This document shows positions 10,030 to 32,044 of a stretch of DNA of 64,000 nucleotides, piece by piece (position 1 is the first letter of the stretch; every line of letters starts with the position of its first letter). Source of the DNA: Microcoleus sp. AS-A8. GTDB taxonomy: Bacteria; Cyanobacteriota; Cyanobacteriia; Cyanobacteriales; Coleofasciculaceae. The notes under the pieces were generated by a model that was given only the letters and a program-made list of their open reading frames with translations, had not been told where the DNA came from and did no database searches. The stretch covers positions 265,924 through 329,923 of the forward strand of contig JAMPKV010000010.1 of assembly GCA_039962225.1 (NCBI GenBank), in the 5' to 3' direction. A program made the position numbers and the translations under genes.

Positions 10030-10133
10030 GAATTAAAATGTCAATTAAAATAATACGTTATCTTAGGAAAAAAGGGAGAACATAAATGGAGATGATAGGC
10101 TTTAATTGTTCATCAGTTATCCTTTATGAGTTC

Positions 10134-13127
10134 CTAGTCCAAAATTTTAGCTTCTTCAATTAAATCCAAAATTTGATCGCAACGGAAATTATTGACTAAA
10201 TCAGCTATAGCTTTGGCTAGTGGGTTATAGACAGCAGGGATTTGCTCGATCAGCTGAAATATTCGCTCATTATCAATGGTGACAGCCGCCTGGTATAGCT
10301 CATGAACCCACTCAGTTGGCATTACGTAGAACGATGAAGGCTCAAGGATGTACGGCACAGCCAAACCTTCAATGTTAGATGAATCCCCTGGTTCGACTTC
10401 GATCTGTTGCCTTCCACCTGCTGACGTGGATGAGGCGGATTCTGCATAAATGTAACGCACCCCTAAGTGTTGAGCCATCTTTTCAAAGATAACCGACTCT
10501 CGAAAGGGCTTACGCACAAAGTCGTCACAGCCTGCTGACAAAACAACGGAACGTTCTTCCTCAAAAGCACTGGCGGTTAAGGCAACAATTGCCGTGGCTT
10601 GACCTTTTAAGTCGGCTTTGATACGTTTAGTGGCTTCATACCCATCCATGACAGGCATCCGCATATCCATCCAGATCAGGTGAGGTTCCCAGCTTGACCA
10701 CAATTCAATGGCTTCTTGCCCATTCACCGCTTCTTGCCCCTCAAAACCGACAGATGCCAGAAGTTTAACTAACAGCACACGACTTTCCAGGCGATCGTCA
10801 ACAACAAGGATGCGATATTGCGGTTGTCCAGATTCTAAACCAATCACCCTAGGACTGGCTTGGGGCGTTACAATTTTAGGCTCTTGGGCTAAATCCACCT
10901 CGATCTCAAATTGAAAAATACTTCCCTTACCTAAGCGACTGCTAACCTTAATATCTCCCCCCATCAGTTACACAAATTGTCGCGATATGGGTAAACCTAA
11001 ACCCGTTCCTTCTAAGGCTTGCCGACCCGTTTGTGTTTGCACAAAAGGTTCAAATAAGGAGTCCATCTCTTCGGGGGCAATACCGAATCCCGTGTCTTCC
11101 ACCTCAAAATAAAGGATTACGGGTTGATGGCTTGAATGTTGTCGGTTTGAAGACTGTTGAGAACCTCCAACATTCAACCTTTTAACTGGCGATTCATTAG
11201 AAGATTCAACCTGCAACTTACTGCCTACTCGCAAGGTAACCCCCCCCTCTGAGGTGAATTTAATGGCGTTTCCCAGGAGGTTAATTAAGACTTGACGCAA
11301 CTTACTTTCGTCAGTTTGCACGTATTGGGGAAGGGTGGGAGTGCGGTCAAACACTAACTGCAAATTCTTATTTTGGACGGGCAACTTGAACATGGCTTCA
11401 AGAGTGTCCAGCAGATGGTACAGATCAAAACTATTCTTATTCAGCGTGACCCGACCCACCTCGATTTTGGACATTTGCAGAACATTATTAATCAGTTCGA
11501 GTAAATGTTCACCGGAGTGCTGAATAATTCCTAGGTACTCCTGTTGTTGTGGATGGGGGGATGAGTCACGAGTGAGTAATTGGGTAAAGCCGATGATGGC
11601 ATTGAGGGGAGTCCGAAGTTCGTGGCTCATATTGGCGAGGAATCTGCTTTTGGCACGATTTGCCGTTTCGGCTACATCTTTCGCCTGTTGCAATGCCGCT
11701 TGTGCCTGCTTGCGATCGCTGATATCTTGACTGACAGAAATAACATGAATTTGTCCATCCAAGTCAATCCTTTCTGCGGATAACAATGCTGTCCTTACTT
11801 CACCAGACTTGGTTCTGAATTTGAATTCATAGTTACGAATGACGCCCTCCTCTTGCAGGAGATGGAACAGTTGGGCACGGTCTTCCCAATTCACCCAAAG
11901 ATTCAGATCGACCGCAGTACGACCCAGGACTTCTTCACGGGTATAACCTATAAATTTGCAGAAACTATCGTTAATTTCGATATGACAGCCATCACTTTGG
12001 CGAGTGATTGTGAAGGCACTCGGACAGGAACGAAACGCTTTGGCAAACTTTTCTTCTGATTGACGCAGTGCTATCTCTGCACGCTTACGAGCCTTGGCGG
12101 CTATTTCGCTAGCCCGAATTTCTTGTTGGAGTTGTCGATTTTTTTCTTCTAATTCCTGAGTGCGATCGGAAACTTTTTGTTCCAAATTTCGGTTATAATC
12201 AGCTAAGACTTTCTCCGTTCGTTTGCGTTCCGTGATATCTTGCAAAGCGTTAATACTATAAGCAATGTTTCCATCAGCATCATAGATAGGCGTTGACCAA
12301 ACTTCGATAGGAATTCTTTGATTACCTTGGTGGACTTCCAAATCGTCAGCAGTTACATTTTCTCCCTTCAGCGATCGCACAATGGGCAACTTTTCGGAGG
12401 GATATAACTGATTCGTACCTGCGATATAGACTTGATAAGCTTCTGAAAGCCTTTCCGATGGTGTGTTTGGATCGACTCCTTTGCCAAAAATTTCCTTGCC
12501 TCTTTGATTCAAAAAGTAAAGTTTGCCGTTAGCATCAAGTACTCCCACCCCAACAGGTACAGCTTCTAAAAATTGAGCCAACTTACGTTCGCTTTCCCGT
12601 ACAGCTTCATCGGCTTGGTCTTTCAATTGATTGACGACTGTATCACCATGTTCAGTCGAAGTTTCTAGCAAAATTTTTAGGTCAAATTTTTCCTGTATTA
12701 AGGCTTCCCGTTCTCGGAAAAAACGTTTATTTTCAGCGTTGAGTCGGCAAAGCTCTATCTGAGTATTGATACGGAAAATCAGTTCCTCTTTGGAGATGGG
12801 TTGAGTTAGATAATCATTTATCCCAATTTCTAAGCGAGTTGCCCAATTAGGGACTTGGTTTTTATCACTTAACTCTAAAATCGGAATTTGATCAGCCTGC
12901 AAAATTTTACGGAGTTTTTGAGTCAATTTATAGGCAGACATATGGGGCATATCCAACAAGATCAGGTCGGGTTTTAGACCTTTTTCTATAATTTCTAATA
13001 CTTCCTCTCCATTGCTGGCTTGAGTAAGGTCATAATTTGATTGGGATAAATATTGGACAAGTACCTGACGATTCTCTATCCGATCGCCCACTATCAAGAT
13101 TTGGTTATTCTTGCATTGCATATTCAA
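10134..13127 (-). pseudogene. Hybrid sensor histidine kinase (pseudo-REC, 2x PAS, HisKA, HATPase, REC, C-terminal domain) interrupted by an in-frame TAA
   Basis: ORF 10968-13127 ends ...[13 protein letters not shown] and ORF 10134-10964 continues in the same frame with [10 protein letters not shown]... The paralogue reads FVQLMGGEI, so the TAA (plus-strand 10968-10970 tta) replaces a CAA Gln codon. Confidence 0.6.
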
Positions 13128-16971: not shown

Positions 16972-18327
16972 TTACGAGGAGCTGGATGAGGTTTTGATTC
17001 CCTTAAACCGTTCTTGGGCTACTTTAAACGCATCTTGCATCACCAACTGAATTTTCTTGGGATCGGGTTTCTTACCCCCCATTAAATCCCCGAAGTAAAC
17101 GCAGGCTCCTTCCCCCAGTGCCCAGGTGTAGGCCGCAGCCCAAGAGGCGGCAATCACACTGCCAAAACCAGGGATAAATTTGACTAATTCTCGTCCCACT
17201 GCCCTGGCGAGGAAGCCACTGGCGATCGCACTCACCACTCCTCCGGCCTGTGATGGGGTGAGTGTCTGCCCATACAATCGCCCCAACAGACCCACCATTG
17301 AGACTTGTAATGCTGTCAGCACGGGCATACTGGCAAAGGGGACGGGTACAGCCTCCAGGGCGGCTGCCATGATGGCAAAGGCCAACATGTAACGCCGTCC
17401 CACATCTCGGTAGAGGTTGCCCAGTTGTTTGCCAACTTCGTCCCGCTCCAATAACTGATAAATCGCACGGGCTTCCGCTTCTGGGAGAAGGTCGGCGAGG
17501 GAAGTCGAGAGTGCTTCTAAGCCATAAAATACAGGATGGTAGCCGTCTTCTTCTAAGGTGAAGTCAATTAAGACGGCGCGATCGCAAATTCCGGTAAAGG
17601 CGTCCTGAATAGCGGTGAAGGCTCGGTTAACCTCCTCATAATCGGGCGGATAGACCGGATGATCAGCAGTACCGGGCGGATAAACCTCATGCAAGCACGT
17701 CACCACGAGTAGACAGGGAATATCTGGATACTGCTGACGCAGTTGAGCCGCAATGTGTCGCAGTGTATCGGTGGCAAAATCATTGATTTTAACGGTTAGA
17801 ATCAGGACTCTGGCGCGGCGTGTTTCCTGTTGCAGATCGCCCACCAATTCCTGAATAATGACCTGAGTCTCTTGGTTCACATCTCCCAGTCCCACCGTAT
17901 CGGTAAAAATCAGCAACGGCAGGTCATTGGAGGGATAGGCATAACGTTCGGTGTGTTGCGTATGGGGACGATATCCCTGACCCACAATCTCCGCAGAAAC
18001 CCCCGTCAGCCCCCGCACAATCGAGCTTTTTCCAGCTTGGGGCTTCCCAATCAGCAGGGCTTCTGTGGTGGGCAGTTCGGCGCGAACCGTCTCCAAAATC
18101 TCTGCAACCTGTTCTTCGCTGACGCTAAACCACTGACTCACGGTTTGAGCGAGTTGGTCTACGGGTAAGAGTTGCACCAAACGTGTTGTTGTGTTGTTCC
18201 AGATACCCGAAATGCGGTTTTTCCAGGAATCGTCAACCGACTCAGTCGTCATACCCTCAGTTGGTTCACTCAACGGCTGAGAATTATCTGACGGCGAGTC
18301 AGTTTCATGTGGCTCAGTCATTGGCAT
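16972..18327 (-). CDS. P-loop GTPase with C-terminal DUF697/YcjF-like membrane domain
   Basis: G1 LIGKPQAGKSSIVRGLTG, G3 DTVGLGD, then a C-terminal hydrophobic region (LAFAIMAAALEAVPVPF...VSAIASGFLARAVG). 451 aa. Confidence 0.7.
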   Translation of the reverse strand: MPMTEPHETDSPSDNSQPLSEPTEGMTTESVDDSWKNRISGIWNNTTTRLVQLLPVDQLAQTVSQWFSVSEEQVAEILETVRAELPTTEALLIGKPQAGKSSIVRGLTGVSAEIVGQGYRPHTQHTERYAYPSNDLPLLIFTDTVGLGDVNQETQVIIQELVGDLQQETRRARVLILTVKINDFATDTLRHIAAQLRQQYPDIPCLLVVTCLHEVYPPGTADHPVYPPDYEEVNRAFTAIQDAFTGICDRAVLIDFTLEEDGYHPVFYGLEALSTSLADLLPEAEARAIYQLLERDEVGKQLGNLYRDVGRRYMLAFAIMAAALEAVPVPFASMPVLTALQVSMVGLLGRLYGQTLTPSQAGGVVSAIASGFLARAVGRELVKFIPGFGSVIAASWAAAYTWALGEGACVYFGDLMGGKKPDPKKIQLVMQDAFKVAQERFKGIKTSSSSS

Positions 18328-18565
18328 AATAACGGTTCATAGATTTCAGTCAGATCTTATCTATCTAACATGAGTGCGGGATAAGGAGGGGTGGGGCAGA
18401 TAAAGTTGAAAGTGCCGAATTTTCGACTTACCTGACCCCCCATGCCTAAATATTACCTTCAACTTTGCTTGCGATCGCTTTTACCCAACAACAGACTTTA
18501 CCACTACTAAAATACGACCTTCTGTATATTGACTTATCCAGTGTTTTATGTAACTAAGGTAGTTA

Positions 18566-18766
18566 ATGTACGAACTTCCCTATATTGACTTATCAAATAT
18601 TTTGTGTGTTTTTAGCAATATCTACAAAAACAAAGAATTGTCAATCCACCTATTTAAAGAGTATAAGAAGTCACCGCTGATTCTTTTAAAGATTCATAAA
18701 GATAGGCTTGTGAGCAAATTGACAAATGTACGAACTTTTATATATCGACATTGTCGATTTGATTGA
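18566..18766 (+). CDS. Conserved 66-codon Lys-rich ORF inside the duplicated leader (coding status uncertain)
   Basis: MYELPYIDLSNILCVFSNIYKNKELSIHLFKEYKKSPLILLKIHKDRLVSKLTNVRTFIYRHCRFD. It is duplicated at 24417-24608 with one substitution. AT-rich composition could produce it by chance. Confidence 0.15.
   Translation: MYELPYIDLSNILCVFSNIYKNKELSIHLFKEYKKSPLILLKIHKDRLVSKLTNVRTFIYRHCRFD
18719..18746 (+). promoter_or_regulatory. Putative sigma70-type promoter (TTGACA-16 nt-TATATC) inside the leader
   Basis: ttgacaaatgtacgaacttttatatatc. It would give a ~370-nt 5' UTR for the giant gene. The copy 2 equivalent at 24567-24594 has TTGCCA. Confidence 0.3.
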
Positions 18767-19119
18767 ACATACTGAGAAGACGAAATAACGTTCAAGGTTG
18801 TTTCAGCCAATCACTCTAAGGGAATTCACTGTTGAAAATACTCTGTTGTTTCAAAGGCATAGCTTCACTCCCTGAGACGATAAGGGTTTGTCGGTAATTA
18901 TTTGGGGATTGGGCAGGGTTGCCCTTACACAAACTAAGAATTTTGCACCCATTAGGTTGGTGTAAATCTACGTCATCTCAATTATCCGAGATTTTATCTC
19001 TTGGCGTTGGCATGAGGCTAAGTGTTCATTGCGTTCTCCTCGAAGTGAGGTTGGCGTTCATTTCTGCTGTTTTTTTTGCCTGTACTAACTAACCAAACTC
19101 AACATATTCGGGAATTTTT

Positions 19120-22100
19120 ATGGCAACTTTTAAATGGATCGGTAGCGGCGCAACTAATAACTGGACTGAGGCAGCGAATTGGAGCCTTGTTAGTGGCACA
19201 GGATCAGATCCAGACGGTATTCCTGATGCAGATGATGTGGCGCTTTTTGATGGGACATCGACCAAAAATGCCACTATTAATACCAACTTCAGCATCCAAA
19301 ACCTTCAGGTGGCTGCTGCTTATACAGGAAGCATTAGCCTGGGTTCAAATACACTGGCGGTTGCAGGGGGATTTGCGATCGCAAATGCCAGCAGTTTTGA
19401 CTCAGGGACAGGGACAGTACGCTTTACTGGAAATCAGACTGTAGATACTACAGCAGCACTGTACAACCTGGAAGTTGCGATCGCTAGCGGTAATCTAACT
19501 CTAGTGAAAGATTTGGTGGTCAGCAACGACCTTACCATCACCGATGTCAATCAAATTTTCGGCAGTGGTGGCTCATTCAATATCAAGGTCAGTGGGGATG
19601 TCATCACCAACGATGCCAACTTTAACAACAGCAACTCTGCCATTCAACTGGTAGGCAGCACCGACCAAAGTATCAGTGGCACTGGGGTACTGTGGAATCT
19701 CGATGTTGCCAAAACGGGGGGCGATGTCCTGCTCACCGATGACCTGCGATTACGTGGTGGCACTCTGTCTGGTTCAGGTCTGCTCAAAAATGCTGGCGGT
19801 AAGGTGGTCTTTGGAGAGCCGAGTATCTTTAACGAAGGCTATGTCAGTAACTTCAGTGGTTCTATTGATGATGTTGAGCTGAAGTTTCAGTCTCAGTCCA
19901 ACTTTTTGCTCAGTAAAGACTTGGTTGTTAACAATGACCTAATCATCACTGAGGTGCAGACGATTGCAGGCAATGGTGGCTCATTCAATATCAAGGTCAG
20001 TGGGGATGTCATCACCAACGATGCCAACTTTCGCAACAGCAACTCTGCCATTCAACTGGTAGGCAGCACCGACCAAAGTATCAGTGGCACTGGGGTACTG
20101 TGGAATCTCGATGTTGCCAAAACGGGGGGTAATGTCTTGCTCACCGATGACCTGCGATTGCGCGGCGGCACTCTGTCTGGTTCAGGTCTGCTCAAAAATG
20201 CTGGCGGTAAGGTGGTCTTTGGAGAGCCGAGTATCTTTAACGAAGGCTATGCCAGTAACTTCAGTGGTTCTATTGATGATGTTGAGCTGAAGTTCGGTTT
20301 TGCAGGCAACTTGACGCTCAACAAGGATTTAATCGTTAACAATGACCTGATTATTACCGATGTCAATCAAATTGCAAGCAGTGGCTTCAGTATTAAAGTT
20401 GCTGGAGATGTGATTTCTAGTGATACCAACGGGATCTCTGGAACGGGTGCCATTACTTTAGTAGGCAGTGCGACAAACACTTACACAGGCTTGGGCAGTG
20501 GAACACAGGGGAACCTGGTAATCGATAAAGTGACCTCAACAGACAAAGCATTGTTAGGTTCCAGCGAGACTTTCTCGTCGATTGTTGTTAATGAAGGTAT
20601 TTTCGATGTCAATGGTAAAACTGCGACTGCTGGCACGACCATCAACAACGGTGGAACCCTCGGCGGATCGGGCAAAGTAATTGGCAATGTCACAGTTAAC
20701 AGTGGTGGTGTGCTAGCTCCTGGTAGTGGCATTGGTATTCTCAACACAGGTTCTGTTAACTTTACCAACGGCTCACTGTTCAACGTAGAGTTAGGCGGTA
20801 CATCGGCAGGCAATGGGGTTGGATTCTACGATCAGCTAAATGTAACGGGTACAGTGACGATTGGCACCAGCGCTGTACTGAATACATCACTGTTTGGCGG
20901 ATTTACGCCAGGTGGTGGTAACACATTTATCATTGTCAACAATGATGGTGTTGATGCTATCACTGGAAGATTTAATGGCTTAGCTCAAGGAGCGACAGTC
21001 AATCTGGGTTCTGGAATAAATGCCACTATCTCGTATACGGCAGGGGATGGTAATGATATTGGACTATCGCTCCTCAACCAGGCACCTAATCTTACAGGCA
21101 ATGCAACATTAGCTGCTGTTGCGGAAGATACCACCAACCCTAACGGTCAAACAATTTCCACCGTCTTCAATGGACTGTTTAGCGACCCGGATGCAGGCGC
21201 AAGTCTTGGCGGTGTTGCAGTCGTTGGGAATACTTCAAATGCAACTACACAAGGGACGTGGCAATACTCTACAGATGGTACAAACTGGTTTGCTGTAGGC
21301 ACGGTTGCGGATGGTGCAACAGCTCTGGCACTCTCTGCCAGCACGGTAGTCCGGTTTGTTCCCGTTGCCAATTACAACGGTGCTCCCCCGGATTTAACTG
21401 TTCGGGCGATCGATAACACCTACAGTAGTGGATTTACCAGTGGGGGTACTCGTATCAATGTGAACACTGGTACGAATGGGGGAACGACCGCAATTTCTGG
21501 TACCACCAACACCATTAACACCAGCATCACGGCGGTTAACGATGCACCAATAGGCTCACCGATCGCAACTCTAGCAACTGGAACCGAAGACATCCCCTAC
21601 ACCATCAGCAAAGCCGACTTGCTAGCAGGCTTTAGTGATGTTGATGGCGATTCCTTGTCACTCAGCAATGTCACAGTCAATGGCACGGTTCTGACGGCGG
21701 ATAGCAGTGGGAACTACATCTTCACACCTGCTGCCAACTTCAAAGGCACTGTCAACGTTTCTTACAACGTAGTGGATGGTAAGGGTGGCTCACTAGCAGC
21801 AACTCAGTCCTTTGCGATCGCTCCTGTTAACGATGCACCTGTACTAGCAACCAATACCCTAAGCATTACTGAAGGTGGCACAGTTACCCTAAGCAGCAGC
21901 AACCTCAACACCAGTGACTCGGATAATACTCCAGCTCAACTGCTCTACACCATTAGCAACATCAGCGGTGGCAGCTTCGGTGGTACAGGCGTCACCACTA
22001 ATGGCAACGGTACTGTCAGCTTTACCCAAGAGGCGATTAACAACGGAGTAGTACAGTTCACCCACGATGGAGGTGAAAACCCACCTAGCTATGCCGTTAG

Positions 22101-24012
22101 CGTCAGCGATGGTGCGTTGAATACAAACCCAGCAACTGTGACTATCCCATCGGGCGGCTTCACTCCCGTCAACGATGCACCTACGGGCACACCGACAGCA
22201 ACATTAGCAGCGGGAACTGAAGACACGGTTTATACAATCAGCCAAACCGCTCTGTTACAAGGTTTCACCGATGTAGAGGGCAATACTCTCTCTGTTGCTG
22301 ACCTAACTGCCAGCAACGGCACCTTGGTCAACAACAACAACGGCACCTACACCTTCACACCTGCTGCCAACTTCAACGGCACCGTCAACCTTTCCTATAA
22401 CGTGGTGGATGGCAATGGCGGTTCAGTGGTAGCCACTCAGTCCTTTGCGATCGCTCCTGTTAACGATGCACCTGTACTAGCAACCAATACCCTAAGCATT
22501 ACTGAAGGCGCTACAGTCATCCTCTCTCCTACTAACCTCAACACGACTGACTCTGATACACCTGCAACCGGACTGACTTACACCGTTAGCAACGTCACAG
22601 GGGGCCAGTTCGAGACTGTTGCTAATCCTGGAACAGCAATTACCAGCTTTACCCAGGACAACATCAACAATGGAGCAGTACAGTTTGTCCACAACGGCGG
22701 TGACGCGGCTCCTTCTTACTCAGTCAGCGTCAGCGATGGTGCTCTCAGCACCCCTGCAACTCCGGTTAGCATTGGTAATTTTACCTCTGTTAATGACGCT
22801 CCCACTCTAGCAACCAATACCCTAAGCATCACTGAAGGCGGCACGGTTACCTTAAGCAGCAGCAACCTCAACACCAGTGACTCGGATAATACACCCGCTC
22901 AACTGCTCTACACCATCAGCAACATCAGTGGTGGCAGCTTTAGCGGTACAGGCGTCACCACCAATAGCAACGGCACTGTCAGCTTTACCCAAGAGGCGAT
23001 TAACAACGCAGTAGTACAGTTCACCCATGATGGCGGTGAAAACCCACCCAGCTATGCCGTCAGTGTCAGCGATGGTGCGTTGAATACAAACCCAGCCACT
23101 GTCACTATCCCAGCAGGTAGCTTCATTCCTGTTAATGATGCACCCATTGTGGTCGGGCAAGGCATTGAGGATCAAATCATCTCAATTAATCAAGCCTTCT
23201 CCTTAAATGTCAGCAACAATTTTAGTGACGTTGACCCAGGGAATATTCTTACCTACACGGCTACAGGCTTACCCAGTGGTTTCAGCCTCAATGCCAACAC
23301 GGGTATCGTATCCGGCACAATTTCCACTCCTGGCATTTTTAATGTGAATGTCACAGCCAATGATGGAGATGGTGGCACAGTGAGTGATGCCTTTGAACTG
23401 ATTGTTGCTAATAATAATGCCACTCCTTTTGATGACATCATCTACATGAGCCAACTCTCTGGCATCCACAAAGATAAAATCAATGCCAAAGAAGGGCGCG
23501 ATCGCGTGATTGGCACCAGTGCTAATGAGTTTATTGGCGGTGCAGAAGGCGATGATTACTTGGATGGTCAGGGCGGTAACGACAAACTTCTCGGTGGTGA
23601 TGGTAACGACACGCTCATTGGTGGACTTGGCAGTGACGACCTCCAAGGCGGTGACGGGAACGACACCTTGACCGGTTGGGGCAGTGGTACAGGGAGTGCC
23701 AATCAAATCGACGAACTCAAAGGTGGCAGCGGAGCTGACCTCTATATTCTGGGAAATAGTACCTCCGTCTTTTACAACTTGGGTGGCTACAATGACTACG
23801 TCAAGATTGTTGGCTTTGAAGCTGAGGATCGCATTCAGCTAAAGGGAACAGCTAGCAACTACTCTTTGGGTTCACTTCCATCATCTGTGTCTACAGATAA
23901 TGCCTCTATCGGCCTGTTTACCAATTCCGGCACAGAATTGATTGCCGTCCTCAAAAACGAAGGTTTAACCTCCACTAGCCTGACAACAGATGCTCGCTTT
24001 ACTTTCGTTTAA
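19120..24012 (+). CDS. Giant secreted repeat protein (1630 aa). Beta-strand repeat N-terminal region, cadherin-like VNDAP modules, C-terminal RTX (GGxGxD) calcium-binding nonapeptides. Likely type I secretion substrate/adhesin (oscillin/SwmA-like class).
   Basis: No N-terminal signal peptide. At least 6 modules begin (P)VNDAP... e.g. PVNDAPVLATNTLSITEGGTVTLSSSNLNTSDSDNTPAQLLYTISNISGGSF...VQFTHDGGENPPSYAVSVSDGALNT. The C-terminus reads GGAEGDDYLDGQGGNDKLLGGDGNDTLIGGLGSDDLQGGDGNDTLTGW. Composition is Thr/Asn/Gly/Ser-rich. Confidence 0.85.
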   Translation: MATFKWIGSGATNNWTEAANWSLVSGTGSDPDGIPDADDVALFDGTSTKNATINTNFSIQNLQVAAAYTGSISLGSNTLAVAGGFAIANASSFDSGTGTVRFTGNQTVDTTAALYNLEVAIASGNLTLVKDLVVSNDLTITDVNQIFGSGGSFNIKVSGDVITNDANFNNSNSAIQLVGSTDQSISGTGVLWNLDVAKTGGDVLLTDDLRLRGGTLSGSGLLKNAGGKVVFGEPSIFNEGYVSNFSGSIDDVELKFQSQSNFLLSKDLVVNNDLIITEVQTIAGNGGSFNIKVSGDVITNDANFRNSNSAIQLVGSTDQSISGTGVLWNLDVAKTGGNVLLTDDLRLRGGTLSGSGLLKNAGGKVVFGEPSIFNEGYASNFSGSIDDVELKFGFAGNLTLNKDLIVNNDLIITDVNQIASSGFSIKVAGDVISSDTNGISGTGAITLVGSATNTYTGLGSGTQGNLVIDKVTSTDKALLGSSETFSSIVVNEGIFDVNGKTATAGTTINNGGTLGGSGKVIGNVTVNSGGVLAPGSGIGILNTGSVNFTNGSLFNVELGGTSAGNGVGFYDQLNVTGTVTIGTSAVLNTSLFGGFTPGGGNTFIIVNNDGVDAITGRFNGLAQGATVNLGSGINATISYTAGDGNDIGLSLLNQAPNLTGNATLAAVAEDTTNPNGQTISTVFNGLFSDPDAGASLGGVAVVGNTSNATTQGTWQYSTDGTNWFAVGTVADGATALALSASTVVRFVPVANYNGAPPDLTVRAIDNTYSSGFTSGGTRINVNTGTNGGTTAISGTTNTINTSITAVNDAPIGSPIATLATGTEDIPYTISKADLLAGFSDVDGDSLSLSNVTVNGTVLTADSSGNYIFTPAANFKGTVNVSYNVVDGKGGSLAATQSFAIAPVNDAPVLATNTLSITEGGTVTLSSSNLNTSDSDNTPAQLLYTISNISGGSFGGTGVTTNGNGTVSFTQEAINNGVVQFTHDGGENPPSYAVSVSDGALNTNPATVTIPSGGFTPVNDAPTGTPTATLAAGTEDTVYTISQTALLQGFTDVEGNTLSVADLTASNGTLVNNNNGTYTFTPAANFNGTVNLSYNVVDGNGGSVVATQSFAIAPVNDAPVLATNTLSITEGATVILSPTNLNTTDSDTPATGLTYTVSNVTGGQFETVANPGTAITSFTQDNINNGAVQFVHNGGDAAPSYSVSVSDGALSTPATPVSIGNFTSVNDAPTLATNTLSITEGGTVTLSSSNLNTSDSDNTPAQLLYTISNISGGSFSGTGVTTNSNGTVSFTQEAINNAVVQFTHDGGENPPSYAVSVSDGALNTNPATVTIPAGSFIPVNDAPIVVGQGIEDQIISINQAFSLNVSNNFSDVDPGNILTYTATGLPSGFSLNANTGIVSGTISTPGIFNVNVTANDGDGGTVSDAFELIVANNNATPFDDIIYMSQLSGIHKDKINAKEGRDRVIGTSANEFIGGAEGDDYLDGQGGNDKLLGGDGNDTLIGGLGSDDLQGGDGNDTLTGWGSGTGSANQIDELKGGSGADLYILGNSTSVFYNLGGYNDYVKIVGFEAEDRIQLKGTASNYSLGSLPSSVSTDNASIGLFTNSGTELIAVLKNEGLTSTSLTTDARFTFV
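19470..20420 (+). repeat. Recent in-gene tandem duplication, unit 408 bp (136 aa), 2 full + 1 partial copies
   Basis: ggctcattcaatatcaaggtcagtggggatgtcatcaccaacgatgccaacttt occurs at 19570 and 19978 (offset 408). The shadow ORFs 19676-19882 and 20084-20290 are 408 nt apart and near-identical. Confidence 0.75.
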
Positions 24013-24317
24013 TCGCGTCTTGTTGAGGTAAAAGAGTGAAGATTTGATTGGAATTGAGAGGGTTGCCCCAAAGGAACAACCCTCTTCACTCCGGTAACAC
24101 TAATCCTGTTGAGTGCGATCGCTATCCCCAGCCTGTTCACAACTCAAGTTCCGCGTTGAGTATATTTCAGGATATTTGGTGGGCGATCGCTCTTTTTTTT
24201 TGCCAACTGCTGAGGATACAGAAGACCCAGAGGGAGAAAAAGCGATCGCTTAACCTACAGTCTTGATTGATGGCGATTGCACTAGAGACGAGTCTTCATC
24301 AACTCTTCATCCATTTG

Positions 24318-24986
24318 GTTTGCGATCGCTTTTACCCAACAACAGACTTTACCACTACTAAAATACGACCTTCTGTATATTGACTTATCCAGTGTTTTAT
24401 GTAACTAAGGTAGTTAATGTACGAACTTCCCTATATTGACTTATCAAATATTTTGTGTGTTTTTAGCAATATCTACAAAAACAAAGAATTGTCAATCCAC
24501 CTATTTAAAGAGTATAAGAAGTCACCGCTGATTCTTTTAAAGATTCATAAAGATAGGCTTGTGAGCAAATTGCCAAATGTACGAACTTTTATATATCGAC
24601 ATTGTTGAACTGATTGAAGATACTGGGAAAACTCAATAAAGTTAAAGGTTCACACAAATCATCACTCTCAGGAAATTCACTGTTGAAAATATCCTGTTGT
24701 TCCAAAGGTATAGATTCACTCCCTAAAACAATAAGGGTTTGTAGGTAATTGTTTTGGGATGGGGCATGGTTGCCCTGACACCCACTGAGAATTTTGCACC
24801 AATCAGGTTGGTGTAAATAAAAGTAATCTCAACTTGTCTGAGATTTCATCTCTTGGCGTTGGCATGACGCTAAGTGTTCATTGCGTTCTCCTCGAAGTGA
24901 GGTTGGCGTTCATTTCTGCTGTTTTTTTTGCCTGTACTAACTAACCAAACTCAAGAAAACACAAGAACTAGAGGCATTTATCAATT
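24318..24986. repeat. Copy 2 of the duplicated leader, preceding the second giant gene
   Basis: See 18472-19119. It includes small-ORF copy 24417-24608 and a T8 tract before the start codon. Confidence 0.85.
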
Positions 24987-27900
24987 ATGGAATTTTTCAC
25001 GACAATTCAGAATGACAATTCACAGGATGGAATGAGCTGGGAAATAGGTACGGCACTTCGCTCTCGCAGAAACGATGAAATCGCTATCTCTGATTCGGGT
25101 TGCAGAGTCGCTTCACACAAGCAGAATGTTGATGAAGTTCGGCAAGTTTTGAGTGGAATTGCCTTTATTGATTCGGGATTAGACGATTACCAAAGTTTGG
25201 TTGCGGGAGTGGCATCAGGAATTGAGGTGGTTGTCCTCGACTCCACACAGGATGGGGTGGAGCAAATTAGTCGGGCACTGGCGCAACGGCAGAGAATTGG
25301 CAGTATCCATATTGTCTCTCATGGCGCTCCCGGTGCAATTTATATCGGTAATCGCGAACTGAGTCTAGAAACGCTGAATCAGTATGGAAGCGAACTTTTA
25401 AGCTGGGCAGATTGGCTAGCTTCCGATGCTGAAGTGTTGATTTACGGTTGTGAGGTAGCAAAAGGCGATCGCGGACAAGCCTTTATCCACCGCTTGAGTG
25501 AGCTAACTGGAGCAGCGATCGCGGCTTCAGCAACGCTGACAGGTTCCTCTGAACGAGGTGGCAACTGGGAGCTAGAGTTTAATACTGGAAGTAGTGAGGC
25601 TTCAGAAGTTTTTCAACCCTGGACACAGACGGCTTACAGCCATGTGTTGGCGACTTTTAGCGTCACGAATACCAACGATAGTGGTGCCGGTTCATTGCGG
25701 CAGGCGATCTTAGATGCAAACGCAGCGGCAGGAGCAGACACAATCGAGTTTTCAGGTTCCATCTTCACCGATGCAACTCCCGACACCATAAACCTGACTT
25801 CTGGAACGCTCAATATTACAGGCGACACCACAATTACGGGAACCGGAGCCAGCAATTTGAGCATTGCCAGAAGCTCCAGTGCATCTAACTTTGGCATCTT
25901 CAATATCACAGGTGCAAACGTTAACTTGAGCAGCTTGACGGTTACAAATGGTGTTAGCAATTTGGCCGGTGGTATTTTTTATCAAGGTGCTGGAACGCTG
26001 AATCTCACTAACACTGTTGTCTCCGGTAATAGAGGAAGCAATGGAGCTGGGCTGTGGGTTAATGGTACTGGTGCTGCAAATGTAGTCAACAGCACTTTTG
26101 CAAATAATACTGCTCCCGGAGGACTCGGTGGTGGTATTTTGCTTAACACTGCCACCACAATTAACATCATCGATAGTCAGATAACGGGAAACTCTGCCGC
26201 AAGTGGTGGTGGTATTAACAATAATGCTCAAGGTGGCATCATTAATGTTACCAATAGCACAGTTTCTGACAATACGGCTACTGATTTGGGTGGTGGTATT
26301 TCAAACCGCTACCATCAAGTAAATGTTATCAATAGCACCATCTTTAACAACACGGCGGGTAATAGCGGTGGTGGAATTTACCATCAATCGGGCACTTTTA
26401 CAGTAAGTAACTCCACTGTTTCGGGTAACCGCTCCAATAATAACGGTGGTGGTATCTACAACGATTTGTCCGGTGCAGTGATGAATTTGTTGAACAGCAC
26501 CATTACTAACAATATTGCTGACAACGACAATAACGGTTCGGGTAACGGTGGCGGAGTTGCCAGAAATACTGGAACTGTTAACGTTAAAAACACCATCATT
26601 GCTGGAAATTTCGATAGTCCCAATGCTAATACAGCAACTGAAAATCCCGATGTCTCTGGAATTTTTAATAACCAAGGCAATAACCTGATTGGCATCAATA
26701 CTGGCAGTAACTTTGTTGCTGGAGGTTTAATTGGCTCTGCTGCAAATCCAGTCGATGCCTTACTAGCTCCCCTGGCTAACAATGGGGGTTCAACTCTGAC
26801 CCATGCTCTACTTTCTGGCAGCCTTGCTATTAATGCAGGTAGTAATACCAGTATCCCTGCTGATACTGCCGATTTAGATGGAGATGGAAATAAAACTGAG
26901 TCTATCCCGTTTGATCAGAGAGACTCAGGTTTTACAAGGCTTTACGGTAGCTCTGTCGATATCGGGGCTTTTGAAGTCCAACCTCCCTCCAATACTCCAC
27001 CAACCCTTAGTGCTCCAGTGACGGTATCTGCAACTGAAGATGACGCTCCTTTGAGCGTTAATCTGCTGGCTAATGCGTCTGACCCTAATGCTGGTGACAC
27101 TCTCAACGCGACCAACCTCACCCTTACGAGTGGCAATGCGGCGGGTGTAACAATTAACGGCAACAGTCTGAGCGTCGATCCCAGCGCGTACAATAGTCTG
27201 TCTGCTGGGGAGAATGAGGTCATTACTTACAGCTACAACATCATTGATGGCAATGGTGGTAGTGTTTCCCAAACGGCGACTCTCACTATTAATGGTGTCA
27301 ACGATGCACCTGTACTCACAACCAACACCCTAAGCATCACAGAAGGTGGCACGGTTACCCTAAGCAGCACCAACCTCAACACCAACGACCCGGATAATAC
27401 TCCAGCGCAACTGCTCTACACCATCAGCAACATCAGTGGCGGCAGCTTTAGCGGTACTGGCGTCACTAACAATAGCAACGGTAGTGTCAGCTTTAGCCAA
27501 GAGGCGATTAATAATGGACTGGTGCAGTTCACCCATGATGGAGGTGAAAACCCGCCCAGCTATGCCGTCAGTGTCAGTGATGGTGCATTGAACACCACCC
27601 CAGCAACTGTGACTATCCCCGCAGGCAGCTTCACTCCCGTCAACGATGCCCCTGTACTAGCAACCAACACTCTTACCATCACTGAAGGTGGCACAGTTAC
27701 CCTAAGCAGCACCAACCTGAACACCAGCGATTCAGATAATACACCAGCTCAACTGCTATACACCATTAGCAACATCAGCAGTGGCAGCTTTAGCGGTACT
27801 GGCGTCACAACTAATAGCAACGGTACTGTCAGCTTTAGCCAAGACGCGATTAATAACGGACTGGTGCAGTTCACCCATGATGGAGGCGAAAACCCACCTA

Positions 27901-28760
27901 GCTATGCCGTCAGTGTCAGCGATGGTGCGTTGAATACCACCCCAGCCACTGTGAGTATCCCCGCAGGCAGCTTTATACCTGTCAATGATGCCCCAGTAGC
28001 GACGGGTGACACGACAACCACCAGTCAAAACACAGCCGTGAATATCAGTGTGCTGGCAAACGACAGCGATATCGAGGGTAACTCTCTCAGCTTGAGCCTT
28101 GGCACCAATCCCAGCAACGGCACTGTCCAAATCAATAACAACGGCACTGCCTCAATTCTGTCCGATGACTTCCTCACTTACACTCCTAACAATAGCTTCA
28201 GTGGCACTGATAGCTTTAACTACACCATCAATGACGGCAATGGTGGAACTGCCACGGCTACTGTCACAGTAGCTGTAGGTAAAACCTTAGATGGCACCAA
28301 CAAAGACGATTTGCTCGACGGTACCTCAGGCAACGATATTTTCAGGGGCGGTAATGGTCAGGATACCCTGAACGGATTTGCAGGTGACGACCTACTGGAC
28401 GGCGGCAACGGGAAAGATACTCTTAATGGCGGTGTCGGTAACGATACCCTACTCGGTGGCAATGGCGAAGATGTTCTTGTCGGTGGCGATGGCAATGACT
28501 TGCTAATTGGCGGTAATAGTCCTGACACTTTAACGGGAGGCACTGGCAGCGATATCTTTGCGATCGCTAAAAATGGAGCCAATGATACGATTACCGACTT
28601 CAGTTTAGGTCAAGGCGATCGCATTGGTCTATCTGAAGGTCTGACGTTTGGCGAACTGACCTTCCAAGCCAACAACATTCTCAGAGGCACTGAAGTTTTA
28701 GCGACTCTGACTGGGTTTGATACCACAACTCTTACTCAGGCTAACTTCATAGCTGTTTAA
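24987..28760 (+). CDS. Giant secreted repeat protein (1257 aa). DUF4347-like N-terminal domain, right-handed beta-helix (choice-of-anchor-Q/PbH1-like NxTxxxNxAxxGGGI repeats), cadherin-like VNDAP modules, C-terminal RTX nonapeptides.
   Basis: N-terminus ...IHIVSHGAPGAIYIGNRELSLETLNQYGSELLSWADWLASDAEVLIYGCEVAKGDRGQAFIHRLSELTGAAIAAS matches the DUF4347 pattern. Beta-helix turns read VTNSTVSDNTATDLGGGI / INSTIFNNTAGNSGGGIY / VSNSTVSGNRSNNNGGGIYN, ending DIGAFEVQ. RTX: GGNGQDTLNGFAGDDLLDGGNGKDTLNGGVGNDTLLGGNGEDVLVGGDGNDLLIGG. Confidence 0.85.
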   Translation: MEFFTTIQNDNSQDGMSWEIGTALRSRRNDEIAISDSGCRVASHKQNVDEVRQVLSGIAFIDSGLDDYQSLVAGVASGIEVVVLDSTQDGVEQISRALAQRQRIGSIHIVSHGAPGAIYIGNRELSLETLNQYGSELLSWADWLASDAEVLIYGCEVAKGDRGQAFIHRLSELTGAAIAASATLTGSSERGGNWELEFNTGSSEASEVFQPWTQTAYSHVLATFSVTNTNDSGAGSLRQAILDANAAAGADTIEFSGSIFTDATPDTINLTSGTLNITGDTTITGTGASNLSIARSSSASNFGIFNITGANVNLSSLTVTNGVSNLAGGIFYQGAGTLNLTNTVVSGNRGSNGAGLWVNGTGAANVVNSTFANNTAPGGLGGGILLNTATTINIIDSQITGNSAASGGGINNNAQGGIINVTNSTVSDNTATDLGGGISNRYHQVNVINSTIFNNTAGNSGGGIYHQSGTFTVSNSTVSGNRSNNNGGGIYNDLSGAVMNLLNSTITNNIADNDNNGSGNGGGVARNTGTVNVKNTIIAGNFDSPNANTATENPDVSGIFNNQGNNLIGINTGSNFVAGGLIGSAANPVDALLAPLANNGGSTLTHALLSGSLAINAGSNTSIPADTADLDGDGNKTESIPFDQRDSGFTRLYGSSVDIGAFEVQPPSNTPPTLSAPVTVSATEDDAPLSVNLLANASDPNAGDTLNATNLTLTSGNAAGVTINGNSLSVDPSAYNSLSAGENEVITYSYNIIDGNGGSVSQTATLTINGVNDAPVLTTNTLSITEGGTVTLSSTNLNTNDPDNTPAQLLYTISNISGGSFSGTGVTNNSNGSVSFSQEAINNGLVQFTHDGGENPPSYAVSVSDGALNTTPATVTIPAGSFTPVNDAPVLATNTLTITEGGTVTLSSTNLNTSDSDNTPAQLLYTISNISSGSFSGTGVTTNSNGTVSFSQDAINNGLVQFTHDGGENPPSYAVSVSDGALNTTPATVSIPAGSFIPVNDAPVATGDTTTTSQNTAVNISVLANDSDIEGNSLSLSLGTNPSNGTVQINNNGTASILSDDFLTYTPNNSFSGTDSFNYTINDGNGGTATATVTVAVGKTLDGTNKDDLLDGTSGNDIFRGGNGQDTLNGFAGDDLLDGGNGKDTLNGGVGNDTLLGGNGEDVLVGGDGNDLLIGGNSPDTLTGGTGSDIFAIAKNGANDTITDFSLGQGDRIGLSEGLTFGELTFQANNILRGTEVLATLTGFDTTTLTQANFIAV

Positions 28761-28840
28761 TCTCGATCGCCCAACCGCTTGGTACTCTGTAACACCAATC
28801 CTGTTGGGTGCGATCGCTATCGCCATCATAGTCTCCGACC

Positions 28841-28865
28841 CAGCATGAGTTCTTTGCTCATGCTG
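28841..28865 (+). terminator. Intrinsic terminator candidate downstream of the second giant gene
   Basis: CAGCATGAG-TTCTTTG-CTCATGCTG (9-bp stem) followed by GATTATTGCTTTTCC. Confidence 0.5.
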
Positions 28866-29074
28866 GATTATTGCTTTTCCCTTACTTTTTCTTTACTTTT
28901 TCTCTGTTTACTATTGGAATTATTCCCTGTTAAATATAGAATACCAAAATAAAAAATCAAATTTATATTTTTAGGCTTCTTATGAAGAAATAAAAAATAA
29001 TTTGATTTTTGGTTAAATTAGGTTTTGAATTTTAACCTTGCTTGGAGTAGTTCGTTGGAGCTACCAATCTTGAA

Positions 29075-30436
29075 ATGTATATTTCTAGTTCAATAGCCAT
29101 GAAAGAGAGCCATGACGGCTTAGATTTTATCGAAAAATTAATTTATGTAAAAACAGGGAAATCTCTCAATAATATTCAAAAAGCTGTATTACAGCAATTT
29201 TGGCAAGATTCCAGAAAAACCTATGAAGAATTTGCTAAAGAATTAGAATATTCTGCTAGTTATATCCAGCAAACAGTTGCTCCTCAGCTCTGGCGTCTCT
29301 TGTCAGAGATATTAGGCGAAAAAGTCAGTAAAATTAATTTTCGTTCTATCGTAGAAAGGCAGTGGTTAAACCAAGTTTTGAGTAAAAGTGATAACCTGAT
29401 TGAGCCACCAATGCTAGAATTGATGGACTTAGAATTTCCAGAGGGACGAGTTTCTCTAAGTTCCCCATTTTACATAGAGCGAGTTCCCCACGAAAGCAGG
29501 TGCTATGCAGAAATTGTTAAACCAGGAGCCTTTATCCATATCCAAGCACCCAAGCAAATGGGCAAAACTTCTTTGTTGGGAAGGATTCTTGCTTATGCAA
29601 CAAGGCTAGGCTATCAAACAGCCAGCTTGAACTTGCACAGAGCAGATCAATCGATTCTCACAAACCTAGATAAGTTGTTGCGGTGGTTTGCCTGGGAAGT
29701 CAGTCATAAACTAAAACTAAATCCCAAATTGGATGACTATTGGTATGAAGATTTGGGCAGTAAGGCGAGCTGCACAAACTATTTTCAAGACTATCTATTA
29801 GAACAAATCAATTGCCCCTTTTTCTTAGCAATGGATGAGGTGAATGAAATTTTTCAAAATCCGCAAATTGCCCAAGATTTTTTATCACTTTTGCGTTCTT
29901 GGCATGAAGAATCAAAAGACAACAAAATTTGGCAAAAACTCCGCTTGGTAGTTGTTAATTGCACAGAAGCTTATGTGTCTCTAAATATTAATAAATCTCC
30001 ATTTAAGGTAGGGATACAAATTCAGTTGGACTCATTTACCTGGGAGCAGGTACAGGATGTAGCCCAGCGTCATCGACTCGATCTATCAATCGATGATTTA
30101 GCTCAGCTTATGTGGTTAGTAGCCGGTCATCCTTATCTCTTGCGTTTGGCTTTATACCATCTGGCTCAAGAGAGTTTGACGTTGGAGGAACTGCTACAAA
30201 CGGCTGCTTCAGATACTGGGATTTACAGCGAACACCTGCACCAAAAATCGTGGTATTTACAACAGAATTCGGAACTAGCGGCAGCGTTTGAGAAGGTTTT
30301 AAAGGCAAAAGCTCCCATTGAGTTGGAGCAGGTACAGGCGTTCAAGTTGCACAGTATTGGGCTGGTGAAAATGGAAGACAAGCTAGCAATGACTAGCTGT
30401 AATTTGTATCAGCAGTATTTTGGCGATCGCTCTTAA
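29075..30436 (+). CDS. AAA-like (AAA_35-type) P-loop NTPase with N-terminal HTH-like module
   Basis: Walker A QAPKQMGKTSLLGRIL, Walker B FFLAMDEVNEIF. N-terminus LNNIQKAVLQQFWQDSRKTYEEFAKELEYSASYIQQTVAPQLWRLL. The gene and its flanks (28860-30440) are visibly lower in GC than their surroundings. Confidence 0.7.
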   Translation: MYISSSIAMKESHDGLDFIEKLIYVKTGKSLNNIQKAVLQQFWQDSRKTYEEFAKELEYSASYIQQTVAPQLWRLLSEILGEKVSKINFRSIVERQWLNQVLSKSDNLIEPPMLELMDLEFPEGRVSLSSPFYIERVPHESRCYAEIVKPGAFIHIQAPKQMGKTSLLGRILAYATRLGYQTASLNLHRADQSILTNLDKLLRWFAWEVSHKLKLNPKLDDYWYEDLGSKASCTNYFQDYLLEQINCPFFLAMDEVNEIFQNPQIAQDFLSLLRSWHEESKDNKIWQKLRLVVVNCTEAYVSLNINKSPFKVGIQIQLDSFTWEQVQDVAQRHRLDLSIDDLAQLMWLVAGHPYLLRLALYHLAQESLTLEELLQTAASDTGIYSEHLHQKSWYLQQNSELAAAFEKVLKAKAPIELEQVQAFKLHSIGLVKMEDKLAMTSCNLYQQYFGDRS

Positions 30437-31438: not shown

Positions 31439-32044
31439 TTGAATGTAACCCTAAAAAATATTTCTGTAGTTAGATCCATCCCTGACTTTAGAAAATATTA
31501 TTTGGCAACGCACGATCGCGAACATCTATTCAGAGAATTAGGTGAGCGCGGAATTTTTGACGAAGCCGCATTTAGGCGAGCCAAGTTAGCCGCTGTCTTA
31601 TTAATGACGGCAATGGGGGTGCCAATGCTCTGGATGGGAGAAGAATTCGGTGAGCATAAGCGCAAAAGTGAAAAGGTGACTCAACCGAATAAAATTGCAT
31701 GGCCGTTGTTGGGAAGAGACTTGAATCGAGATTTATTCGAGTATTACAAAAAACTCATTGCCCTACGCAAACAACATCCAGCGCTTCAAGGGAACTATAT
31801 TGAGTTTTGCCACGAAAATCCAGAGGCTAAAGTGTTAGCTTACGTTCGTGGAAGTGATGCAAGTTCTCGTGTTGTTGTGATTACGAATTTCTCTGATAAT
31901 GTTCTGAATCAGTACCATGTCCCTAATTTTCCAGACGCTGGGACTTGGCATGAGTGGATGGGCAACTATGACGTAGCCGCACGGGAAGAGGGCATCCGGA
32001 TTGATATCGGAGGCTACGAAGCAAAAGTTTTCGTCTGTCAGTGA
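31439..32044 (+). pseudogene. Remnant of a glycoside hydrolase family 13 (alpha-amylase superfamily) gene, C-terminal ~200 codons only
   Basis: ...AAVLLMTAMGVPMLWMGEEFGEHKRK... matches the conserved GH13 region (G-P-M-L-x-M-G-E-E-x-G) plus the C-terminal beta-sandwich. The catalytic domain is absent. Only 268 bp separate it from the upstream divergent gene. Confidence 0.5.

Follow-up and report, generated by a model that had tools for sequence, protein, structure and literature searches.

Two tandem RTX/cadherin-like giant genes of Microcoleus sp. AS-A8 as probable paralogues with an inherited leader

Do two giant genes that stand in tandem behind almost the same leader form a portable cassette system, or are they relatives that have kept and exchanged parts of a common ancestor? 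The question is raised by a 64-kb stretch of DNA from Microcoleus sp. AS-A8 (the whole of which is called the window below), in which gene 1 (19120-24012, an open reading frame [ORF] of 1630 aa) and gene 2 (24987-28760, an ORF of 1257 aa, the NCBI version of which starts at Met16) each follow a leader of ~632 nt. Features lie on the forward strand unless the minus strand is named. We consider it likely that the genes are a paralogous RTX pair, that their leaders are alike by descent and gene conversion, that gene 1 has lost a domain by deletion and that the products would act at the cell surface. The apparent cassette system is thus clarified as a paralogous pair, and the leader is explained by common descent together with gene conversion.

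The flanks of the window are syntenic with the Allocoleopsis franciscana PCC 7113 genome (88-92% DNA identity). The host is an Allocoleopsis-type filamentous cyanobacterium, and the locus is chromosomal and fast-evolving. The gene 1 product is NCBI MBD2013331.1, a 'cadherin-like domain-containing protein' of Microcoleus sp. FACHB-53, and that of gene 2 is 100% identical to a 'DUF4347 domain-containing protein' of the same strain. The original prediction had put the locus forward as an undescribed system, which was overstated, as both proteins are annotated in NCBI and, at a cut-off of E <= 1e-10, 14,438 cluster representatives belong to the DUF4347 family, whose proteins reach lengths of 6,529 aa. 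The two genes are paralogous members of an abundant, annotated and uncharacterised DUF4347/CSLREA/cadherin-like RTX class, in an ordinary though fast-changing locus, and make up no new system.

A unit of leader, giant gene, 3′ motif and hairpin had been described as occurring twice in the same orientation, and its ORFs, leaders, motifs and hairpins were all recovered with small coordinate corrections. Leader copy 1 (W1, 18471-19102) and copy 2 (W2, 24322-24954) are about 95% identical overall. Behind the genes, the 33-nt motif GTAACACYAATCCTGTTGRGTGCGATCGCTATC was found exactly twice in the window, against an expectation of 0, and it also lies behind the homologue in L002 (a soil-metagenome contig). 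Its first copy lies at 24094-24126, and its second (28789-28821) forms the 3′ arm of a HIP1-containing hairpin at 28764-28816. Gene 1 is followed just past its stop codon by a 10-bp hairpin (24056-24086), of a type that also follows a gene 1-type C-terminus in L035. Gene 2 is followed by a terminator-like hairpin of 11 bp with a U-rich stretch (28840-28866; z = -5.5), in which L002 has C-G where the window has A-U, a compensatory change that keeps the pairing. Both genes are thus provided with a leader and a 3′ hairpin of their own. The leaders had been called HIP1-bounded. Both copies do start at a HIP1 site, but such sites number 50 in the 64-kb window (~1 per 1.3 kb) and the site is degenerate at the leader of L034, another soil-metagenome contig, so that the description has little weight. 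Four HIP1 octamers lie within 215 nt (24115-24329), in the stretch that leads from the 3′ motif of gene 1 to leader 2.

Protein domains were called with Pfam and NCBIfam hidden Markov models (HMMs), and these searches upheld the RTX/cadherin-like make-up proposed for both products. Gene 1 matched Cadherin_5 (1e-64), Cadherin_3 (3e-53), Big_9, He_PIG and HemolysinCabind, and gene 2 matched DUF4347 (3e-61), Big_9, Cadherin_5, Cadherin_3 and HemolysinCabind. Three to five stretches per family and protein were assigned to Cadherin_5, Big_9, Cadherin_4 and Cadherin_3, as in a series of Ig-like extenders, and the tandem-95 repeat model NF012211 scored 169.8 and 111.5 bits in the two proteins (cut-off 90). 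RTX nonapeptides were recognised by PF00353 at E = 7e-7 (gene 1) and 5.5e-13 (gene 2), with six repeats of GGxGxD type per protein, at residues 1474-1543 and 1121-1192, respectively. Gly, Thr, Asn and Ser abound in both proteins, which contain 0 (gene 1) and 2 (gene 2) Cys residues. From this domain make-up, both products would be large, Cys-poor, Ca2+-binding RTX/cadherin-like extracellular proteins.

The two products differ mainly in their heads. Gene 1 starts with a head related to PATR (autotransporter-associated beta-strand repeat) proteins, with three repeats of 136 aa that are 87.5% alike, followed by VNDAP-delimited Cadherin_5/Big_9 and Cadherin_3 modules (806-1337), He_PIG, the RTX repeats and a C-terminal tail. 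No Pfam match was obtained for its residues 1-650, and a PDB sequence search with the head returned nothing meaningful. In gene 2, DUF4347 (58-221) precedes a CSLREA/choice-of-anchor Q beta-helix (to ~665), cadherin-like modules (671-1098), the RTX repeats and a tail. The predicted DUF4347 and right-handed beta-helix head was borne out by 206 bits for DUF4347 and by 64.8 bits for choice_anch_Q (cut-off 25). Likewise, the near-identical modules said to be common to both proteins are real; four Cadherin_3-type modules are shared, with 89-94% protein and 87-91% DNA identity. The tails behind the repeats are ~65-90 aa long and end in FTFV and FIAV. The N-termini (MATFKWIGSGATNNW... and MEFFTTIQNDNSQDG...) are without a hydrophobic core as judged by eye, and no Pfam or NCBIfam retention module was matched at the N-terminus of either protein. 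The proteins would be exported C-terminus first by a type I secretion system (T1SS) encoded elsewhere, would fold with Ca2+ outside the cell and may act as adhesin-like surface or matrix proteins.

We then compared five distinct copies of the leader, namely W1, W2 and those of the soil-metagenome contigs L001, L002 and L034; L021, a contig of a metagenome-assembled genome, is nearly identical to L002 and was treated as a near-duplicate. All of these contigs carry the leader upstream of DUF4347-headed genes, with 80-91% DNA identity to the window copies, and the similarity runs on into the coding sequence (MEFFTTIQND...) in four of the five distinct copies (W2, L001, L002 and L034) and likewise in L021. 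Conservation within the leader is patchy, being confined to three boxes, TTGTCAATC, a 27-mer, a promoter-like site and the last ~120 nt. The boxes follow a 21-nt pattern, TACGAACTTnnnTATATYGAC, with three per leader and thus 6 matches in the window against 0 in 100 shuffles. In W1 they are box 1 (ATACGACCTTCTGTATATTGAC, 18512-18533), whose core TATATTGAC is invariant in 5/5 distinct copies, box 2 (GTACGAACTTCCCTATATTGAC, 18568-18589), identified by pattern scan and leader alignment, and box 3 (GTACGAACTTTTATATATCGAC, 18728-18749), whose 3′ end gives a -35-like TCGACA. In W2 they occupy 24363-24384, 24419-24440 and 24579-24600. W1, W2, L001 and L002 share an identical 27-mer, AAGTCACCGCTGATTCTTTTAAAGATT (18668-18694 in W1), from which L034 departs by one substitution. 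In L002 (~9380-9560), and also in L021, an insertion of ~180 bp that resembles a miniature inverted-repeat transposable element (MITE), with inverted G/A-rich ends, lies mid-leader between the promoter-like and conserved 3′ parts.

No true leader was found outside this gene family. Neither the rest of the window nor the unrelated loci retrieved contain the boxes. A scan for the box pattern in one genome per species (185,579 species) gave 23 single chance matches in unrelated phyla and one true leader, that of L021. Three chance matches came from a metagenome scan with a leader 20-mer, in a collection that evidently does not hold the L001/L002/L034 sample, and a plasmid search with leader 2 gave no match. 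Because the leader stands only upstream of one gene family and its similarity continues into the coding sequence, it is, on the evidence of these comparisons, the inherited, lineage-specific 5′ region of that DUF4347-headed family and not a portable element. The 'shared regulatory leader' thus does not stand as a cassette; it is the 5′ region inherited in the family, partly homogenised by gene conversion.

Gene 1 itself does not match DUF4347 (PF14252), and the two genes, with their different heads, had been taken for a head-swapped pair. Its relatives tell otherwise. Fragments from PCC 7113, L034 and Trichocoleus sp. DQ-A3 match the gene 1 head with 85-91% identity, and PATR proteins, some of which have DUF4347 and RTX, are more distantly related to it. 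In Trichocoleus P0124 and in L034 a gene 1-type body follows DUF4347 in frame (...YGCEVAKGDRGQAF...ETYSGIF-MATFKW...), and ...ETYSGIF-MATFKW... likewise stands in frame after DUF4347 in P0122. In the window, the junction at 19097-19119 joins the leader end ...AAACTCAA (19102) to CATATTCGGGAATTTTT, with relic codons for (T)YSGIF and then ATG, and the junction ACTCAA|CATATTC is common to the window and PCC 7113. The in-frame fusion in relatives, the relic codons and the shared junction together mark gene 1 as a deletion derivative: it apparently descends from a DUF4347-headed gene whose domain was removed by a deletion of ~0.7 kb. With ACTnAA microhomology at both ends, the deletion would have taken the end of the 5′ untranslated region (UTR), the original start codon, DUF4347 and the linker, and would have put the leader end 17 nt upstream of an internal Met codon, now the start of gene 1. 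The heads were thus not swapped; gene 1 lost DUF4347, whereas P0124 and L034 keep it fused to the MATFKW... body.

The likeness of the two leaders has a mixed history. W1 and W2 are 100% identical over 18471-18749 and 76-84% identical over 18750-18970. Outside the conserved islands, the first of these segments shares no more than 60-74% identity with L001 and L002, whereas over the second W1 is 83-96% identical to L001, whose leader has the same position beside the GTPase gene. As the 3′ part of W1 is nearer to L001 than to W2, the duplication would be older than the split from these relatives. The pattern indicates that the 5′ ~280 nt of the leader became uniform recently, for which gene conversion is the simplest explanation. 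A whole-gene duplication with later exchange between the copies fits the 3′ motif and the modules that both genes have. The ancestral unit would have consisted of the leader, a DUF4347 head, a variable beta-helix or beta-repeat region, cadherin-like modules, RTX repeats and the 3′ motif with its hairpin, and gene 2 would have kept all of it. The pair offers a natural comparison inside one genome, gene 2 with DUF4347 and gene 1 without.

The leader might be conserved for another reason, namely that it is a structured regulatory RNA, either a long 5′ UTR that works like a riboswitch or attenuator or a small RNA. In all copies, conservation is 92-100% over the final ~120 nt, which persist even in the decayed locus of PCC 7113; a U-run and local hairpins are also conserved, and one hairpin has a G-C to A-U change in L001. 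However, an Rfam search of 18000-29500 gave no match even at E <= 1, both leader 3′ parts folded at the level of shuffled sequences (z +0.61 and -0.56), and an RNAalifold run with four copies of the leader yielded a covariation term of -0.25 kcal/mol with 1/54 pairs doubly changed. These three results count as much against an RNA structure in the leader within our own reading. In addition, the U-run is 12 nt away from the nearest stem, and the ~180-bp insertion is tolerated mid-leader in L002 and L021. A structured RNA as the real cause of conservation therefore appears doubtful.

We turned to the domain that gene 2 has kept. DUF4347 (25158-25649, residues 58-221) covers the full model (1-164/164) with 206.3 bits against a cut-off of 24.6. 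A structure model built with 17 homologues reached a mean predicted local distance difference test (pLDDT) value of 78.7, with >88 through most of the core, and its closest structure was Tce1, a type VI secretion system (T6SS) effector of P. aeruginosa (PDB 9qpe chain G). The next structural matches were CHAT (7.9, 7.8), gingipain K (7.2), caspase-9 (6.6), C11, legumain and separase, and the cysteine protease domains of TcdA and MARTX matched as well (6.0, 5.8). In a profile search, IHIVSH112G and LIYGC155 aligned to Tce1 His186 and Cys240. As is typical of clan CD, the model has a caspase-like alpha/beta fold in which the His comes before the Cys and each of them terminates a beta-strand. The His (His112, codon 25320-25322) is present in 109/116 and the Cys (Cys155, codon 25449-25451) in 112/116 of the retrieved DUF4347 domains, proteobacterial ones included, the rest being gaps. 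The His and Cys of Tce1 have been proposed to form a catalytic dyad resembling the one in the TcdB cysteine protease domain (CPD) (PMC13323088). The DUF4347 of gene 2 is thus predicted to be a caspase-fold (clan CD) cysteine protease-like domain with His112 and Cys155.

DUF4347 starts within the first 80 residues in all of the relatives (116/116). In C-terminus-first export by a T1SS, the N-terminus leaves the cell last. Because the domain is N-terminal, it would most plausibly process or release the gene 2 protein itself. With DUF4347 in >14,000 clusters, always N-terminal in these cyanobacterial RTX proteins and with an invariant His and Cys on a caspase-like fold, N-terminal self-processing is suggested to be a general trait within a large class of bacterial surface proteins.

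A protease-like domain in a giant RTX protein also brings to mind MARTX-like autoprocessing toxins, in which DUF4347 would be the CPD that releases cargo in a target cell. The window proteins have neither effector domains nor MARTX A/B/C repeats, and the NCBIfam RTX_toxin model matched only over the nonapeptides, with 65 bits against a cut-off of 1000. Their bodies, made of cadherin/Ig-like modules, He_PIG and a beta-helix, are typical of adhesins, and in all 116 relatives the protease-like domain is at the extreme N-terminus and not between effector domains. The toxin reading is improbable on these grounds; the same features set the window proteins apart from MARTX and large clostridial toxins, whose CPD (C80, clan CD) is internal.

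For the leader, a mobile or portable promoter cassette, MITE-like or integron-like, could be imagined to have been inserted independently before two unrelated genes. Sharp 5′ ends at HIP1, 100% identity over the first 280 nt and the stop of copy 1 ~17 nt before the gene 1 start codon speak for it. The copies have no terminal inverted repeats or target duplications, HIP1 sites come every ~1.3 kb here, and no copies were present in plasmids or the genomes of other species. The restriction of the leader to one gene family, with similarity into the DUF4347 coding sequence, points the same way, and the deletion that L034 and P0124 bring to light accounts for the leader's abrupt stop before gene 1. 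We regard independent insertion as very improbable and descent from one DUF4347-headed ancestor as the better account.

How far does the locus vary among related strains? On its left is a GTPase gene with MMR_HSR1 and weak DUF697 matches in Pfam (16972-18327, minus strand), divergent from gene 1. It was also found in PCC 7113 (locus L033, from the finished genome), L001 and L034 at 92-94% DNA identity; the flanking GTPase region thus shows 92-94% identity to the relatives, against 80-88% for the leader and genes. Between the GTPase gene and a 231-aa gene, the architecture differs in every genome seen, with four related genomes giving four architectures. The window has the tandem pair and then a gene of the AAA_35 family. 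In PCC 7113, the final ~115 nt of the leader are followed by two fragments of gene 1 (373 and 449 aa) and an insertion sequence transposase, without gene 2 or AAA_35. L034 has the leader, DUF4347 and a gene 1-like head in which the repeats number four, not three, and L001 has the leader, DUF4347, a beta-helix, He_PIG and an unrelated repeat tail. In addition, L035 (1-800) shows a gene 1-type RTX C-terminus and hairpin followed by a gene 2-type 3′ motif and terminator and then AAA_35; it is a one-gene version of the locus, as expected from recombination between direct repeats. An extension upstream of leader 2 (24195-24321), also present upstream of the L034 leader, is ancestral and gone from copy 1. 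The locus had been predicted to be a variable surface-protein locus, and the relatives agree, with a different architecture at each syntenic site and a varying number of head repeats. Recombination among direct repeats (leaders, 3′ motifs and modules), deletions and insertions of mobile elements would diversify it.

Two further features of the region emerged from the comparison with PCC 7113. At L033 12517-13428, a DDE_Tnp_1 transposase lies beside the truncated gene 1 remnant, where leader 2, gene 2 and AAA_35 would be. To the right of the variable locus, the window has only the C-terminal 181 codons of an alpha-amylase gene (31439-32044), against an intact one of 556 aa in PCC 7113 (L033 14556-16226), which implies a deletion of ~1.18 kb in the window strain.

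The tandem arrangement could be an artefact of short-read assembly with mis-joined repeats, given that the identical 280-nt leader segment and 300-nt modules (87-91%) are prone to mis-joining and that related metagenome contigs end inside these genes. This is most improbable: for the greater part of their length the two genes are unlike each other, and each type of junction has an independent counterpart in other assemblies, the order GTPase-leader-gene 1 in the finished PCC 7113 genome and in L034 and the order gene 2-AAA_35 in L002. Within the spacer, 24195-24321 is the ancestral leader extension seen in L034, and only 24127-24194 is without outside support. The duplication artefact that the original prediction named as its refutation is thus unlikely, and we take the paralogous pair as real.

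What might the conserved parts of the leader do? A promoter-like TCGACA-N17-CATACT, found as a consensus match at 18745-18773 (copy 2, 24596-24624), overlaps box 3 and is kept as TCGACA-N17-(C/G)ATACT in 5/5 distinct leader copies. The site at box 3 is a putative promoter, with an implied 5′ UTR of ~340 nt. Each gene would then be a separate transcription unit that starts just downstream of box 3 and ends at its own terminator-like hairpin, and boxes 1-3 and the 27-mer would be protein-binding sites. To our knowledge, the box does not fit the cyanobacterial operator consensus of NtcA (GTA-N8-TAC), LexA, CRP or HLR1. That the boxes instead encode tandem small leader peptides (MYELPYIDLS..., MYELLYIDIV...) regulating translation or transcription is scarcely credible, for although window boxes 2 and 3 begin with ATG and give similar peptides, with several differences between boxes that look conservative or synonymous, the box 2 ATG is ATC or ATA in L001 and L002, the L002 frame meets a stop just past the box, box 1 has no start codon and no ORF of at least 35 aa is common to all five leader copies. 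The loss of ATG codons or gain of stops in relatives marks the boxes as nucleic-acid signals, not peptides.

A candidate to read them lies directly downstream. The gene at 29075-30436 encodes a 453-aa nucleoside triphosphatase (NTPase) with a helix-turn-helix (HTH) domain of VMAP-M9 type and AAA_35 (482 bits in Pfam), named 'AAA-like domain-containing protein' in NCBI, where it starts at Met9. It is 82% identical to the product of the gene downstream of the L002 homologue, annotated as HTH_VMAP-M9 plus AAA_35. As in AAA_35/STAND proteins, a P-loop core with Walker A is followed by helical and winged-helix modules; the protein is a STAND/NB-ARC-like core with an N-terminal HTH-like domain and without sensor repeats. 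The original prediction had linked it to the giant genes, and the link holds in that, in the window, in L002/L036 and in L035, three different downstream contexts, such a gene comes directly after an RTX gene's 3′ UTR. The intergenic DNA before it is conserved too, with 80% identity over 337 nt in L035 and, more weakly, 76-80% over 46-83 nt in L036. We propose as a hypothesis that the HTH-STAND NTPase belongs with these genes as a conserved partner and may be the regulator by which the boxes are read. Together, the conserved boxes and the linked NTPase make a testable candidate for the regulation of such genes in filamentous cyanobacteria.

In L037 (8768-9805), L038, L039 and L040, the closest Nostocales orthologues of the NTPase (~60% identity) lie ~195 nt downstream of a gene for a 345-aa Thr-rich protein. 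This Thr-rich protein has a signal peptide and a PEP-CTERM-like tail. The NTPase family may generally be paired with surface-protein genes, as these neighbours hint.

Several observations weigh against our reading of the locus. No genes for an ABC exporter, membrane fusion protein or TolC were found among window ORFs of 150 aa or more, with the 64 kb as the only region searched, and a T1SS may be encoded elsewhere; this negative agrees with the absence from the window that had been reported before. Tce1 was inactive in published assays (PMC13323088). Cys-dependent toxicity in yeast was seen only for Tce2, its non-DUF4347 paralogue (PMC13323088). The scan for consensus promoters returned 18 sites overall, against 16.2 expected from shuffles. 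In Nostoc C117 and L032, no AAA_35 gene stands beside the DUF4347-headed genes, and the closest Nostocales orthologues of AAA_35 follow a PEP-CTERM-like gene instead, so that the link to the NTPase is lineage-specific. Finally, gene 1, which is without the domain that every relative keeps and has a decayed counterpart in PCC 7113, may be heading for loss and not be functional.

How do these genes compare with known systems? The nearest are the cyanobacterial DUF4347/CSLREA-choice-of-anchor Q-RTX giants (e.g., Nostoc P0005-P0101), which have the same N-terminal DUF4347, beta-helix and RTX C-terminus as gene 2. Its head is 40-46% identical to theirs, and >100 such proteins were retrieved. Unlike most Nostoc members, gene 2 has cadherin-like/tandem-95 modules between the head and the RTX repeats, and the leader, the 3′ motif and the AAA_35 neighbour belong to the Allocoleopsis-like lineage only. 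Tce1 (PA0256) is a DUF4347 protein described as a putative cysteine protease (PMC13323088). It is, however, a 310-aa cargo effector in Hcp3 rings, whereas here DUF4347 is the N-terminus of a 1257-aa RTX protein without T6SS context, and the sequence similarity between the two domains is marginal (E = 0.08). RTX adhesins of the LapA, MpIBP and FrhA type are alike in being large, with tandem Ig- or cadherin-like extenders, a C-terminal GGxGxD beta-roll, a strain-variable number of modules and little or no Cys (10.1101/2025.09.30.679566). Unlike them, the window proteins have no detected retention module and no adjacent T1SS, LapG or LapD genes, and their heads differ, with DUF4347 and a beta-helix in gene 2 and PATR-like beta-strand repeats in gene 1.

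In comparison with STAND NTPases (MalT), the NB-ARC cores of CED-4 and NLRs, and archaeal PAB2304/SSO1545, the NTPase lacks sensor repeats (TPR, WD40 or LRR) or an effector domain. HTH domains of VMAP-M9 type are known from vWA-MoxR conflict systems (PMC7159879). The window contains no vWA or MoxR genes, and by precomputed Pfam annotation only this HTH is shared with VMAP systems. PADLOC gave no match for either giant protein or for the AAA_35 NTPase.

One could go further and join these elements, with an active clan CD autoprotease in DUF4347 that sets whether the T1SS-exported RTX protein remains plugged in the cell surface or is let go, an HTH-STAND NTPase that switches transcription through the three boxes, and repeat recombination that yields strain-specific surface variants. 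We hold this combination to be unlikely. If it were true, DUF4347 would be a cis-acting counterpart of the LapG/LapA switch, and the variants could serve filament-filament recognition or defence in multicellular cyanobacteria.

Other genes of the window were noted in passing. A 643-aa dynamin-like GTPase (2703-4634) matched the PADLOC models LeoA (E = 5e-15) and LeoBC (2e-14), and the 451-aa GTPase beside the locus gave a weak LeoBC match (2e-6). On the minus strand, a run of two-component genes (8231-13127) looks fragmented, and L001 and L034 show similar small pieces. A 719-aa hybrid kinase in this run stops inside HATPase_c (profile positions 1-83 of 111), and a 318-aa ORF that starts with HATPase_c sits two ORFs downstream of it, beyond 10134-10964 and 9241-10029. 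Two fusions of Ser/Thr protein kinases lie at 41412-43322 and 62369-63805, one with seven WD40 repeats and the other with GUN4.

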